Below are positions 6,660 through 63,808 of a stretch of DNA of 64,000 bases, piece by piece. The stretch is from NCBI GenBank assembly GCA_038883775.1, contig JAVZLM010000008.1, positions 62,618-126,617 on the forward strand, in the 5' to 3' direction. Source of the stretch: Candidatus Bathyarchaeia archaeon. Its GTDB lineage: Archaea > Thermoproteota > Bathyarchaeia > Bathyarchaeales > Bathycorpusculaceae. The position numbers were made by a program, and so were the translations under genes. Under the pieces are notes generated by a model, which made no database searches, was not told where the DNA came from, and saw only the letters and a program-made list of their open reading frames with translations. Each line of letters starts with the position of its first letter. The stretch's first letter is position 1.

Positions 6660-7568
6660 TTGGTGGTAAATAAACTGGCAATCGCAGGAAGCATTGTTGC
6701 TTTTATTAGTTTGCTTTTCCCGTGGTGGTCTCTCGAAGCTAGTATTGTTGGAGTGTCCCCAGTAACTTTCCACGTATATCCTGGATGGTTCAGTGGTAAT
6801 CTAAATGATGTGGTTAATGTTTTTCGTAAACTTGACATAACTCTCGGCGTAAATTTTTTCGAAGAGTGCGTAGGTGCATTAGCAACGTTTGGTATACTAT
6901 TTTGTTCAGGGATTCTCTTTGCATTGATTGGAGCTTTTATCAGAAGTAACATGGGAAGGGGAATTATTGCACTCGGGTTTTTCTTAATCTTATGTGGTAT
7001 TTATGGTTTTTGTTACACATGGAACAAACTATTTTACCTATTACAAACTCCTATTTCATTTTCACATTCTGAATTGTCACCATTATTTTCTGTTACGTGG
7101 GGTTGGTCATATGGTCTCTATATCGCCATCTTTGCTTTCCTTTTATTGTTGGTGAGTGTTGCATTTCATCCAGTAGAAGTTAAAGCAAAAGAAGAAGTAG
7201 AAATTGAAAAAAAGCCTTCAGAGCAAAAACATATATTCAATAGGACCAAAAAAAGGACCTATTTAGAGTCGATAATGGAAGCACGAGCAAGGGAGATGGG
7301 TCCACCTCCTCCTCCACCTCCTCCTCTCCTATGTAGATTAAGGCTTCATCGGTGGAGGTATTATGGTCAAGATGTTGTGGTTACTGTTCGAGAATACGTA
7401 AAGGTTGGAGACGCACGTATACCAGTTAATGAAGGAGTGAAGCTCATTAATAATAAAAGAAAATGTGCACGATGTGGTATAAAACAAGAGGCAAACATTT
7501 TTACTAACGAAGATGGAACACTCTCTATGAGAGGATGGAGAGAGTCGAATAATTCGCAAGGTGATTAG
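6660..7568 (+). CDS. Membrane protein with poly-Pro linker and C-terminal Cys/His zinc-ribbon-like domain (element cargo)
   Basis: About four hydrophobic segments, Pro8 run, LLCRLRLHRW...RKCARCG. Confidence 0.7.
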   Translation: MVVNKLAIAGSIVAFISLLFPWWSLEASIVGVSPVTFHVYPGWFSGNLNDVVNVFRKLDITLGVNFFEECVGALATFGILFCSGILFALIGAFIRSNMGRGIIALGFFLILCGIYGFCYTWNKLFYLLQTPISFSHSELSPLFSVTWGWSYGLYIAIFAFLLLLVSVAFHPVEVKAKEEVEIEKKPSEQKHIFNRTKKRTYLESIMEARAREMGPPPPPPPPLLCRLRLHRWRYYGQDVVVTVREYVKVGDARIPVNEGVKLINNKRKCARCGIKQEANIFTNEDGTLSMRGWRESNNSQGD

Positions 7569-7591
7569 TCAGTCTTGCACACCCCCTCGTT

Positions 7592-10301: not shown

Positions 10302-10434
10302 TCGGGCGGGCAGGATTTGAACCTGCGACACTCCGGTTTCCGCTTTGCGCTTGTGCGCTTGGTAGGCTGAAATGGGCACCCACCATGGGTGGATGTCTAC
10401 AGCCGGAAGCTCTACCAAGCTGAGCTACCGCCCG
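10302..10434 (-). tRNA. tRNA-Tyr(GTA) with 59-nt intron at 37/38 (10338-10396)
   Basis: C1:G72 and A73, stem TCCGG/CCGGA, loop CT-GTA-G|A, GGTTCAAATCC T arm, BHB central helix CUGU/GCGG. Confidence 0.93.
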
Positions 10435-12831: not shown

Positions 12832-12928
12832 TGGCGGGCCCGACGGGAATTGAACCCGTGACCCCCGGGTTTCTCTGCGTTTTTTGGCTTAAAAGCCCGG
12901 TGCTCTATCCTTACTGAGCTACGGGCCC
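12832..12928 (-). tRNA. tRNA-Lys(TTT) with 19-nt intron at 37/38 (12871-12889), CCA encoded
   Basis: GGGCCCG/CGGGCCC acceptor, CCGGG-CT-TTT-A|A-CCCGG, BHB helix CUUU/AGAG. Confidence 0.93.
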
Positions 12929-19967: not shown

Positions 19968-20040
19968 ACCCAACATCTCAGTAGCCATTAACTTTAGGAA
20001 AGATAAATATACGAGTAAATAACAATTACCCCCACCCAAA

Positions 20041-20136
20041 GGTTTGGGGGAGCTGGGTTATGACCCGGCTGAGAGGACGGCTGAAAGCCGTCGACCCCTA
20101 GAACCTGATCCGGATAATGCCGGCGGAGGGAAAACC
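20041..20136 (+). ncRNA. TPP (THI-box) riboswitch
   Basis: GGGG...GCTGAGA...ACCC...GAACCTGATCCGGATAATGCCGGCGGAGGGA consensus; P1 GGTTT/AAACC; directly upstream of thiamine salvage genes. Confidence 0.92.
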
Positions 20137-21426
20137 GTGAAAAAGAGTAAAAAGAAATTTGGCTTTAAGCTGCCTCCAGAATGGGGAGCAGATCCAGTAC
20201 CATCGGAAAAGAAGATTTTGGGGTTGTTTGATTATTTCATTTTATGGTCTAGCTTGGCTGTTGGTTTGCTTGTGCTTCAGGCTGGCGGTTTGCTTGTTCC
20301 TGGCTTGTCTTTGGTTGAAGCGGTTGCTGTGGCTGTTTTGGGTTCTGTTGTTGGTTCGTTGATGTTGGCTTTGGCTGGTGGTTTAGGAAGCAAATATGGC
20401 ATACCAACGATGGTGAGTTTGAGGGCGGTTTTGGGATTGAAGGGCTCTTTTGCTCCCACAATACTTAATGTGATTCAGCTTATTGGGTGGGCATCCTTCG
20501 AAATAATAATAATGGCAAATTCAGCCATAAGCATTACAGGCTCATTTTTAGGTCCATACACTTTATACTTTTGGATTATAGTTTTTGCAGTTTGGTGTTT
20601 TCTCTTATGTGTTGGAGGACCATTAGTTGTTATAAGACATTGGTTAGAAAAATTTGCCATCTGGTTCACTTATGGAACAGCCATCTACATAACCTACATA
20701 GTTCTTTCAAAATTCCCCCAGCTGTTGGCTTCGACTGGAGATGGCACTTTGTCCATACCACTAGCCTTAGACCTTGTTATAGCAATGCCAATATCATGGT
20801 GGCCATTAATATCAGATTATAACAGGTTTTCAAAAAGTGAAAAAGACGCTTTTCTAGGAACCCTTTCAGGCTATACTTTCGCAAACTCTTGGTTTTATGC
20901 TTTAGGCGCCTTGCTTGTTTTAGCTTATCCCGAAGAAAGCATAATTTACTCAATAGCTTCCATAACTTTTGGAGGTTTGGCTTTAACTTTGCTTTTGATG
21001 GATGAAACCGACAATTGCTTTGCAGACATATATTCTGGAGCTGTTTCTATACAAAATATCTCGCCAAAAACTAAACAACTAAAAATCGTTGCCGCAATAA
21101 CCGTTGTAAGCGCTTTATTAGCAGCTTTGATGCCTACTGAATGGCAAACAGCCTATGAAGGTTTCCTATTGTATATAGGAGCTGTTTTTGTCCCTTTGCT
21201 TGGCGTTCTTGCCGTGGACTTTTACCTAATCAGAAAAAGAGCATATAGCTTAGAAGAATTTTATTCTACGAGTAAAGGTTTAAGGGTTAAGCCCATAATT
21301 TCTTGGTTTATAGGCGTAATCGTATACTTCTACTTCATATTTTACAATTATACTACATGGGGTTCAAGCATACCATCCTTCATAATTTCCGCCTTTATGC
21401 TTTATGTTTTGGAGAAGGTGATTTGA
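20137..21426 (+). CDS. cytX: NCS1/cytosine-permease family transporter, CytX-like (putative HMP/thiamine precursor uptake)
   Basis: About 12 TM segments, MPISWWPLISDYNRF; GTG start after the riboswitch. Confidence 0.8.
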   Translation: MKKSKKKFGFKLPPEWGADPVPSEKKILGLFDYFILWSSLAVGLLVLQAGGLLVPGLSLVEAVAVAVLGSVVGSLMLALAGGLGSKYGIPTMVSLRAVLGLKGSFAPTILNVIQLIGWASFEIIIMANSAISITGSFLGPYTLYFWIIVFAVWCFLLCVGGPLVVIRHWLEKFAIWFTYGTAIYITYIVLSKFPQLLASTGDGTLSIPLALDLVIAMPISWWPLISDYNRFSKSEKDAFLGTLSGYTFANSWFYALGALLVLAYPEESIIYSIASITFGGLALTLLLMDETDNCFADIYSGAVSIQNISPKTKQLKIVAAITVVSALLAALMPTEWQTAYEGFLLYIGAVFVPLLGVLAVDFYLIRKRAYSLEEFYSTSKGLRVKPIISWFIGVIVYFYFIFYNYTTWGSSIPSFIISAFMLYVLEKVI

Positions 21427-63463: not shown

Positions 63464-63808
63464 CTAACCTTCCAGAAAATAATCGAAAGCTCTAAATCTT
63501 CTTTTGAAAGTTTTCTTAAAGTGGAAAATAACGCCTCGGTGGCCTAGCCTGGTGGGGCATCGCCTTGGTAAGGCGGTGGTCGCGGGTTCGAATCCCGCCC
63601 GAGAACCGCTTTGGGCGGTCGGGAAGCTTTGATTTGAATCCGCCCCACCGTAAGATTCGCGGTTTAGTGTTTTTTGGATGTTTAGGTTTGATAGATAGTT
63701 GATTGCTTGTTTTAAGGCGTTTTCTGTGAATGCTGAAACGTTTATGCCATATTCTTGTGCTTGTTTTAGGATTTGGGTTTCTATTAGGATGCTTGTTCGG
63801 GTTTTCAT
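63464..63808 (-). CDS. CcdA-like/RHH small DNA-binding protein; frame runs antisense through tRNA-Thr
   Basis: RTSILIETQILKQAQEYGINVSAFTENALKQAI resembles CcdA-type antitoxins; the C-terminal half is the tRNA antisense. Confidence 0.55.
   Translation of the reverse strand: MKTRTSILIETQILKQAQEYGINVSAFTENALKQAINYLSNLNIQKTLNRESYGGADSNQSFPTAQSGSRAGFEPATTALPRRCPTRLGHRGVIFHFKKTFKRRFRAFDYFLEG
63533..63628 (+). tRNA. tRNA-Thr(GGT) with predicted 22-nt intron at 70/71 (63604-63625)
   Basis: TCGCC-TT-GGT-AA-GGCGG anticodon arm, GGTTCGAATCC T arm; acceptor GCCTCGG/CCGAG|GC-T complete only after BHB splicing. Confidence 0.85.

Follow-up and report, generated by a model that had tools for sequence, protein, structure and literature searches.

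The locus examined here raises the question of whether a tRNA gene that appears to be broken at its 3′-end can still yield a working tRNA, and what broke it. The gene, tRNA-Thr(GGU), begins at position 63533 of a 64,000-nucleotide stretch of DNA from a hot-spring Candidatus Bathyarchaeia archaeon (GenBank assembly GCA_038883775.1, contig JAVZLM010000008.1, positions 62,618 to 126,617); this whole stretch is referred to as the window, and its end is also the end of the contig, C8. The genome studied (G000) is a 91% complete assembly of 28 contigs with a contamination estimate of 5%. From its sequence, the locus is nearly certainly an attL, the left attachment (att) junction of an integrated element with an SSV-type integrase, in the only tRNA-Thr(GGU) gene found. 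We consider it probable that this element brings with it a bulge-helix-bulge (BHB) intron at tRNA position 70/71, which would be spliced by the endonuclease EndA and the ligase RtcB, thereby repairing the tRNA. The parts of the gene are the following:

63533..63603, plus strand: tRNA-Thr(GGU) positions 1-70, the 5′ exon (ARAGORN, Rfam tRNA model positions 3-68, sequence)
63604..63625, plus strand: candidate BHB intron of 22 nt at tRNA position 70/71, also the start of the element's attP arm (sequence, homologues, pair counts)
63626..63628, plus strand: putative 3′ exon G71-C72-U73, provided by the element arm (sequence, 19 relatives, product spliced in script)

The 5′ strand of the acceptor stem is GCCTCGG (63533-63539) and its 3′ strand is CCGAG (63599-63603), which is followed by AA (63604-5). 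As the first-pass annotation of the locus had noted, pairs 1-72 and 2-71 are broken when the gene is read straight through. Excision of 63604-63625 joins CCGAG to GCU and gives a perfect 7-bp acceptor stem followed by U73, as in the 19 relatives read; the exact restoration of G71-C72-U73 claimed earlier is therefore confirmed on the sequence, as is the BHB geometry described below. ARAGORN calls a 75-nt tRNA-Thr(ggt) at 63533-63607 in the unspliced sequence and a 74-nt tRNA-Thr(ggt) in the product spliced in script. Among the 45 Rfam tRNA matches in the genome, 42 are full length (model positions 1-71). The other three are the 63533 gene, which spans model positions 3-68 only, a weak match at C5:81298 (model 9-63), and a 45-base match over a second copy of part of this gene on contig C19, which is listed as model 1-71.

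The genome possesses one Thr(GGT) gene in addition to Thr(TGT) and Thr(CGT), and the search for another Thr(GGT) gene that had been suggested as a check found none in the assembly. In 662 long open reading frames (ORFs), ACT and ACC account for 7,009 of 16,533 Thr codons (42%). Because the Thr(GGT) gene is single and these codons are so frequent, the host cell, as far as its sequence can tell, needs the 63533 gene and hence its repair.

The origin of the break becomes apparent when the gene is compared with the rest of its genome. Bases 1-27 of the 5′ exon are host-derived, and bases 28-70 are the core of an attachment site, which is shared by the following two features:

63560..63603, strand not assigned: att core of 44 bp (tRNA 28-70), an exact direct repeat of C19:285-328 (BLAST against the own genome, C19 sequence, k-mer scan)
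63560..63808, minus strand: int(N), the N-terminal portion (83 amino acids) of an SSV-type integrase gene split in two (ORF list, translation, Pfam, full-length homologues)

On C19, the core copy is followed by GCT TATTT, the native tRNA 3′-end. The int(N) product (MKTRTSILIE...) comprises, in order, a CcdA-like ribbon-helix-helix (RHH) domain (Pfam CcdA, E 1.3e-5), a linker, and the translated att core, and in the integrated state its frame continues to 63464. Read from 63808 to 63560, int(N) is open, as is int(C) from 284 to 3 on C19; the two share one frame through the core, and taken in order they align to full-length integrases of 348-376 amino acids with PF07362 and PF16795. The 94-amino-acid C19 fragment alone has no Pfam match, but it aligns to the PF16795 proteins P0003-P0005, and P0006, its counterpart in a related genome (G590), carries PF16795. 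This integrase family has 322 homologues at E ≤ 1e-20, several of which are named as Bathyarchaeia integrases. The minus strand of the 22-nt insert encodes the FPTAQSG of Int(N), the attP arm being given as SFPTAQSG. On this evidence the insert, the GCT, and the trailer beyond it are all element DNA, the element's own attP arm lying antisense inside int(N).

This changes the terms in which the problem was originally put. The first-pass annotation treated an intron and an integration scar as alternatives, yet the locus is a junction and the intron-like sequence is its attP arm. It also supposed that the intron interrupts the usual integrase target; the relationship is the inverse, the target (tRNA 28-70) ending where the insert starts. 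A matching att copy or an intact Thr(GGT) gene elsewhere, along with a missing spliced product and an unconserved hairpin, was to have pointed to a scar. Such a copy does exist on C19, with the native GCT, and the flanks of the two copies carry the two halves of the integrase gene; the second Thr(GGT) gene does not appear in the assembly. A trait of SSV-type integration, the rebuilding of an uninterrupted tRNA, fails at the 63533 gene, where the identity breaks off after G70 and another 22 nt precede the GCT.

The arrangement is not confined to this genome. A search over 40 related genomes was used to select relatives, the gene being read at the loci of its best matches, and in all 19, including a same-genus genome with an identical tRNA, the tRNA-Thr(GGT) gene runs uninterrupted from CCGAG directly into GCT. 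BLAST and a pattern search reveal that the arm follows tRNA-Thr(GGT) in four of 332 family genomes, G000, G220, G117, and G590 (two copies, A and B), which belong to three genera. The tRNA-Thr genes of G220, G117, and G590 differ from that of G000 in the D-arm and T-loop, and no other Thr(GGT) genes were found in these three genomes. Two other pattern matches were rejected as false positives: the one in G455 is no tRNA, and that in G351 has the native GCTCCA and matches downstream by chance. Further CTTGGTAAG sites in G590, G220, and G117 are not tRNAs.

The insert is identical in G220, G117, and G590-B and differs in G590-A in the loop only. In every case int(N) sequence directly adjoins it and shares its frame. 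The arm (insert, GCU, and trailer helix) is identical to that of G000 at 40/41 positions in G220 and 36/41 in G590-A. The corresponding figures are 46/68 and 47/68 for the linker coding sequence and 69/96 and 68/96 for the RHH coding sequence. The arm is thus far better conserved than the adjacent integrase coding sequence (about 70%).

In two of these genomes, elements seem to have decayed or been lost. The direct repeat at the element ends, 44/44 in G000 (on two contigs), is 43/44 in G117, where the right junction (attR) lies on another contig and is followed by GCT. The single difference between this attR core (G117:C8:23347-23390, L063) and the tRNA changes the anticodon from GGT to GGC. 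The G117 element is dead, with a frameshift in int(C) and no RHH domain in int(N), and its host lives with the attL gene. In G590, the junction is found 204 kb into a contig of 391 kb, which also holds both ends of the element (4.8 kb). Copy A is a full tRNA with arm and int(N). Copy B, 4.8 kb downstream, begins at position 28 and comprises the core, to the left of which is an int(C) that looks intact and, to the right, the arm and GCT, about 70 bases of int(N) linker, and then cellular metabolic genes. Here the core links the arm to int(C) in the manner of an attP, and the reading frame is continuous across the core, as in an attP that lies within the int ORF. No copy with a native 3′-end was found in the G590 assembly. 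The simplest history suggested by these sequences is that an earlier element left its arm as the 3′-end of the tRNA and that a second element entered the intron-bearing gene.

These data also bear on whether the insert is an ordinary, vertically inherited host intron, with the C19 copy and the integrase fragments unrelated to its origin. The older arm copy of G590, flanked by cellular genes and without any native end found, is what such an intron might look like. However, the insert is absent from the 19 relatives read, among them the same-genus genome with an identical tRNA, and occurs in only four of the 332 family genomes (G000 included), scattered over three genera; where it does occur it is contiguous and in frame with int(N) sequence, and at G590-B it is joined to int(C) via the core in an attP-like manner. 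We regard this origin as very improbable. As the model of attP-vectored intron gain (Sugahara et al. 2012) requires, the insert is absent at attR and in the 19 relatives read, the arm is joined to int(C) at G590-B, and the attL carries the insert in four genomes.

A comparison with the same-genus genome G001 was tried as a synteny test of the empty site and was discarded: its intact tRNA lies next to tRNA-Leu(TAG), and the downstream DNA matches contig C2 of G000, not C19. A search of viral contigs gave neither arm relatives with Int(N) nor the exact arm pattern; genome contigs gave only two distant or partial matches, and metagenome contigs two matches to the RHH domain only. Free attP DNA of the element was not found in any of these three collections.

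The second line of evidence is the fold of the putative precursor, which involves the features listed here:

63598..63623, plus strand: predicted BHB core, with central helix H of 4 bp (63598-63601 with 63620-63623), bulge 1 (63602-63604), inner helix h′ (63605-63609 with 63615-63619), and loop (63610-63614) (sequence, RNAalifold, ensemble probability)
63631..63643, plus strand: trailer strand of a predicted 13-bp outer helix, whose partner is 63582-63594 (T-stem 5′ strand and T-loop) (pair counts, RNAalifold, minimum free energy (MFE) fold)

Helix H is CCCG/CGGG and pairs C65-G68 with 63620-23, while h′ is ACCGC (63605-9) paired with GCGGT (63615-19), 5 bp. Bulge 2 (63624-63626) lies 3′ of the BHB core. 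Both bulges are 3 nt, on opposite strands, A69-G70-A and A-A-G71, and would be cut as AG|A and AA|G. Compared with the description in PMC4090602, the geometry is canonical, with exon sequence forming the 5′ strand of the central helix and the second base of each bulge preceding the cut. The helices flanking a BHB are expected to have at least 2 bp each. The outer helix is built of G64-C72 (1 bp), a 2×3 internal loop, and then 13 bp, which may be taken either as the relaxed (HBh′) form or as an interrupted h. The first-pass annotation had described it as a single base pair, missing the 13-bp helix between T-arm and trailer beyond the internal loop.

To the question of conservation, which had also been raised earlier, the answer is that the hairpin is kept in the three other genomes. 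The full structure is paired in 115/115 cells in the five arm copies, four pairs varying one-sidedly and all to G·U. Helix H is paired in 20/20 cells, and the outer helix, which holds four one-sided changes, all to G·U, in 65/65. RNAalifold predicts the outer helix, H, and h′ unaided, and in the whole pre-tRNA the outer helix is within the MFE structure at 37 and 70 °C. In G000, the BHB fold is less stable than the MFE structure by 2.0 kcal/mol at 37 °C and by 2.5 kcal/mol at 70 °C; in G590-A, it is the MFE. H attains an ensemble probability of 0.62 in G000, against 0.96 in G590-A. The G590-A insert carries three substitutions, all in the 5-nt loop, which change two amino acids and abolish a hairpin that competes with the BHB fold.

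The frequency of such a motif by chance was estimated by fixing the 5′ exon and requiring a canonical BHB ending in GCT in the downstream sequence. With downstream sequences sampled from the genome, this was seen in 126/400,000 cases for an inner helix of at least 3 bp and in 23/400,000 for at least 5 bp; with shuffles of the real arm the corresponding counts were 630/400,000 and 133/400,000. A chance origin of the motif (3e-4 to 1.6e-3) is unlikely but not negligible.

It might be argued that the tRNA works unspliced, the 22 nt persisting as a hairpin that bulges from the acceptor stem between 70 and 71; on paper, G71-C72 can pair with G1-C2 once the hairpin is looped out. To our knowledge no tRNA with such an acceptor-stem insertion has been described. 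The hairpin would presumably obstruct the synthetase, 3′ processing, and the binding of elongation factor, and the EndA substrate of PMC4090602 is matched exactly in the size of the bulges, in the 4-bp helix, and in where the cuts fall. This explanation appears highly improbable.

The machinery for splicing is encoded in the genome. There are two EndA paralogues (PF01974) on contig C5, of which one has 3p1z_B/2cv8/3ajv_B as its best relatives in the PDB and the other 5x89/1a79; one paralogue is most like the catalytic subunits of crenarchaeal heterotetramers. RtcB and archease are encoded on C13. From the review PMC4090602, the EndA of this host would have the α2β2 architecture and the broad specificity that goes with it. 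A further observation concerns a tRNA-Arg(TCT) gene at C5:81274-81370 (plus strand), which possesses an extra D-loop insert of about 17 nt. By eye, it could form UUGG/CCAA with 3-nt bulges; the Rfam match covers model positions 9-63 only, and ARAGORN finds the tRNA only after 14-20 nt have been removed.

We therefore propose the following course of events as a model. An SSV-type ("suicidal") tyrosine integrase, with attP in its own gene, recombined within the 44-bp core, placing the element arm beyond it: the 22-nt insert, the GCU, and a trailer complementary to the T-arm. We infer that the tRNA promoter then drives a transcript across the junction. The trailer would pair with the T-stem 5′ strand and T-loop (13 bp), and with this strand held by the trailer, C65-G68 would be free to form the 4-bp central helix with CGGG. 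EndA would cut the resulting BHB after G70 and after the last A of the insert, RtcB would ligate G70 to G71-C72-U73, and the trailer would be trimmed. After decay of the element, the intron would stay as a host intron. That the arm is a working intron is thus a prediction, and in our judgment a likely one.

Related integrases provide some further indications. Two members with the Thr core, P0009 and P0014, read KP-RAGFEP and EP-RAGFEP and can encode only the native ...CCGAGGCU... end. P0007, a full-length integrase with a Thr core and 63% identical to the G590 integrase, reads GS-RAGFEP, with Ser instead of Pro; because Ser cannot encode G71, the arm of P0007 likewise departs from the tRNA sequence once G70 is passed. 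Back-translation of the peptide upstream allows a 24-nt BHB followed by GCU, which we take as a lead only. The DNA of P0007 was not recovered: the best match in 401 class genomes is 54% identical, or 68% over part, and viral contigs gave none.

Several points weigh against splicing of this tRNA. The five arm copies represent one element lineage and are not independent, and the conservation of the arm could reflect a role of attP at the DNA level. Two-sided (compensatory) changes number zero in the five arm sequences, H and h′ being invariant, so that the structural case would have to be built from conservation, the loop-only change, and the four G·U-compatible changes; the three adjacent loop changes of G590-A may moreover be one mutational event. 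Only 1 bp adjoins bulge 2 before the internal loop, the MFE structure in G000 is the competing hairpin CCGCCCGAG/CUUUGGGCGG, and the z-scores of the short stretch, taken as a single sequence, are ordinary. Elements in the same genome at tRNA-Gly(TCC), Gly(GCC), and Val(GAC) rebuild uninterrupted tRNAs, and therefore the intron is no general need of the integrase family. The P0007 test discriminates weakly, since it is also passed by shuffled peptides (7.8%) and natural windows (1.1%). An attR was not found in G220. A search of sequencing runs revealed no RNA run holding the locus, one "metatranscriptomic" run being marked "probably DNA." The Logan contigs of four runs (X1, X2, X4, X8) break inside the tRNA and contain no joints, and are thus silent on splicing, the empty site, and the circular form. 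Finally, the element interior is unassembled in G000, where both junctions lie less than 400 bases from contig ends.

The last two points would also suit an assembly chimera, in which chromosome and free circular element had been joined via the shared 44 bases while the real tRNA is intact. Yet the junction of tRNA, core, and arm was assembled independently in G220, G117, and G590, in the last case far from any contig end (204 kb into 391 kb) and together with the two ends of the 4.8-kb element, and no G000 contig joins the left flank to a native end or represents an empty site. An artifact of this kind is scarcely to be expected.

A more substantial objection is that the locus is an integration scar and nothing else: attP would match the tRNA to position 70 and leave the attL gene broken. 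The BHB-like fold and GCT would be by-products of inverted tRNA-like repeats kept for integrase binding or for coding, and cells would survive by wobble reading or through empty sites in part of the population. An att copy with a native end does exist on C19, the arm is integrase coding sequence with an inverted T-arm copy, compensatory changes and RNA data are both nil, Thr(TGT) and Thr(CGT) genes are present, and the assembly, in its 28 contigs, is 91% complete. On the other hand, the identity runs about 27 bases (positions 44-70, through the T-arm) past the anticodon stem-loop that integrases are described as using in PMC8371274, an extension for which the rebuilding of the tRNA is the only sensible reason. 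Nor does a scar account readily for a motif that ends in exactly GCT, given the chance frequencies above, or for an arm better conserved than the integrase N-terminal domain. The loop changes are non-synonymous and the stems are without synonymous change, and inverted repeats of 13 bp with a spacing of 36 bases are not what a recombinase core site looks like. The gene is retained in G117, with its dead integrase, and in G590, with no native end and a 391-kb contig, and no other Thr(GGT) gene was found there. In G000, ACT and ACC make up 42% of Thr codons, and an empty-site contig is lacking. On balance we hold a mere scar to be unlikely, though it deserves to be taken seriously, and favor splicing of an intron supplied by the element.

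It is also conceivable, at about even chances in our estimation, that there is a lineage of Bathyarchaeia SSV-type elements that carries, within the integrase gene itself, a ready-made BHB intron together with the last three tRNA bases, and that on integration places this intron at 70/71 of the sole tRNA-Thr(GGU) gene of the host. The host would then become dependent on splicing, and decay (as in G117) or deletion (as in G590) of the element would leave a genuine host intron.

The closest precedent is the tRNA-Thr(GGU) of Caldiarchaeum subterraneum, the same isoacceptor, for which intron gain via an intron-containing attP was proposed by Sugahara et al. (2012, PMC3293823), a proposal repeated in the review PMC8371274. 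The Caldiarchaeum intron occupies 24/25, towards the 5′ side of the gene, beside a putative pNOB8-type recombinase, the element being pNOB8-like; here, it is at 70/71, just outside the 44-bp core. The attP state of Caldiarchaeum was inferred from fosmid heterogeneity, whereas the present case draws on four species-level genomes, an attP-like junction, and decayed elements. The insert is here, in addition, antisense within an SSV-type integrase ORF that is split by integration, and is accompanied by the 13-bp helix of T-arm and trailer.

The hallmark of SSV-type ("suicidal") integrases is an attP inside the int gene (PMC3293823, PMC8371274). As in the SSV1 type, attP lies in int and the 44-bp core is the 3′ part of the tRNA; integration divides int into int(N) and int(C), with which both the rebuilt tRNA and the direct repeat overlap. 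The SSV1-type cases as described restore an uninterrupted tRNA; here, identity stops at 70 and the last three bases come after 22 nt, and the integrase also has an N-terminal CcdA-like RHH domain.

The 4-bp helix and the cutting of two 3-nt bulges are shared with the non-canonical BHB introns of Crenarchaeota/Thermoproteales reviewed in PMC4090602, according to which the BHB motif is transplantable to any tRNA position and is processed by endonucleases of the α2β2 type. The positions named in the text of that review are 3/4, 20/21, 22/23, 25/26, 29/30, 30/31, 45/46, 53/54, 56/57, 59/60, "etc.," and 70/71 is not one of those spelled out. Unlike the crenarchaeal introns, the present insert leaves a 3′ exon of 3 nt and overlaps a protein-coding gene. 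The split tRNAs of Nanoarchaeum equitans (PMC4090602) resemble it in that a long helix outside the tRNA body presents a relaxed BHB, but here a single transcript contains the whole tRNA, and the helix is intramolecular, one strand coming from the T-arm and the other from the 3′ trailer. A literature search, the scope of which left out the primary position catalogue and supplements, returned no report of an intron at 70/71 or inside an integrase ORF; "few" acceptor-stem insertions are mentioned in a 2026 preprint (10.64898/2026.10.13.758758).

A number of other features were encountered in the course of the analysis. On the integrase sense strand, the trailer (63629-63650) and the homologous arms (A2) resemble a second, degenerate tRNA-Thr fragment, the 3′ side of the anticodon stem joined to the 5′ half of the T-arm, so that the attP region would form an inverted tRNA-like pair. 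This pair may be the trace of an att switch by inversion (compare the suicidal integrases in PMC8371274). In genome G023 (C2:48321-48347, L032), a 27-base copy of the tRNA-Thr T-arm and acceptor to G70, plus A, lies in sense orientation in a coiled-coil-like ORF (...NEVAGSNPARED...); its identity again ends right after G70.

Contig C3 of G000 holds a second SSV-type integration of about 5.9 kb, with a 44-bp direct repeat at 1623-1666 and 7528-7571 that is the 5′ half of tRNA-Val(GAC). Its int(C) (1664-2488) and int(N) (7338-7490) are both in tRNA sense, and the tRNA is rebuilt uninterrupted. A third element is found on C13 (13955-16981, L102) by a tRNA-Gly(TCC) whose 3′-end, including CCA, is intact; its int(N), with RHH, is antisense to the tRNA, and a C-terminal piece of int(C) lies at the contig end. 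The rest of C13 is cellular, including RtcB and archease, and a second tRNA-Gly(TCC) is on C4. C13 had been considered as the body of the Thr element and was ruled out, being cellular DNA plus this separate element, whose int(C) piece is only 55-60% identical to Thr-type integrases. At C8:38821-39057, outside the window, an int(N)-like remnant with 39% identity to P0004 reads into the intact 3′-end of tRNA-Gly(GCC). The small contigs C12, C13, and C14 carry second copies of tRNA-His(GTG), tRNA-Gly(TCC), and tRNA-Cys(GCA), which may represent a strain mixture or element-linked duplication.

Elsewhere in the window, there are a match to the thiamine pyrophosphate (TPP) riboswitch and two tRNAs with introns at the canonical position:

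20036-20148, plus strand: TPP riboswitch match, 78 bits, E 1e-13
10302-10434, minus strand: tRNA with an intron of about 62 nt (ARAGORN Tyr-GTA)
12835-12928, minus strand: tRNA with an intron of about 20 nt (ARAGORN Lys-TTT)

How archaeal tRNA introns reach non-canonical positions is unsettled, as stated in a 2026 preprint (10.64898/2026.10.13.758758), whose census of tRNA introns in Asgard archaea put mobile elements to the test and saw in them no general route. Only one population underlies the sole published proposal that an intron was borne by an attP (PMC3293823). The locus described here would be a second and anatomically clearer case, in which attL, attR, an attP-like junction, and the split integrase are all identifiable, and it offers a series of states from an apparently intact element to a lone intron. 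If the proposed splicing is real, the birth of an intron is seen at several stages with attP as its vector, and one stretch of DNA serves as protein-coding sequence on one strand and as intron on the other. A tRNA gene that is seemingly broken at an integration junction need then not be dead, which matters for the annotation of tRNAs in metagenome-assembled genomes.

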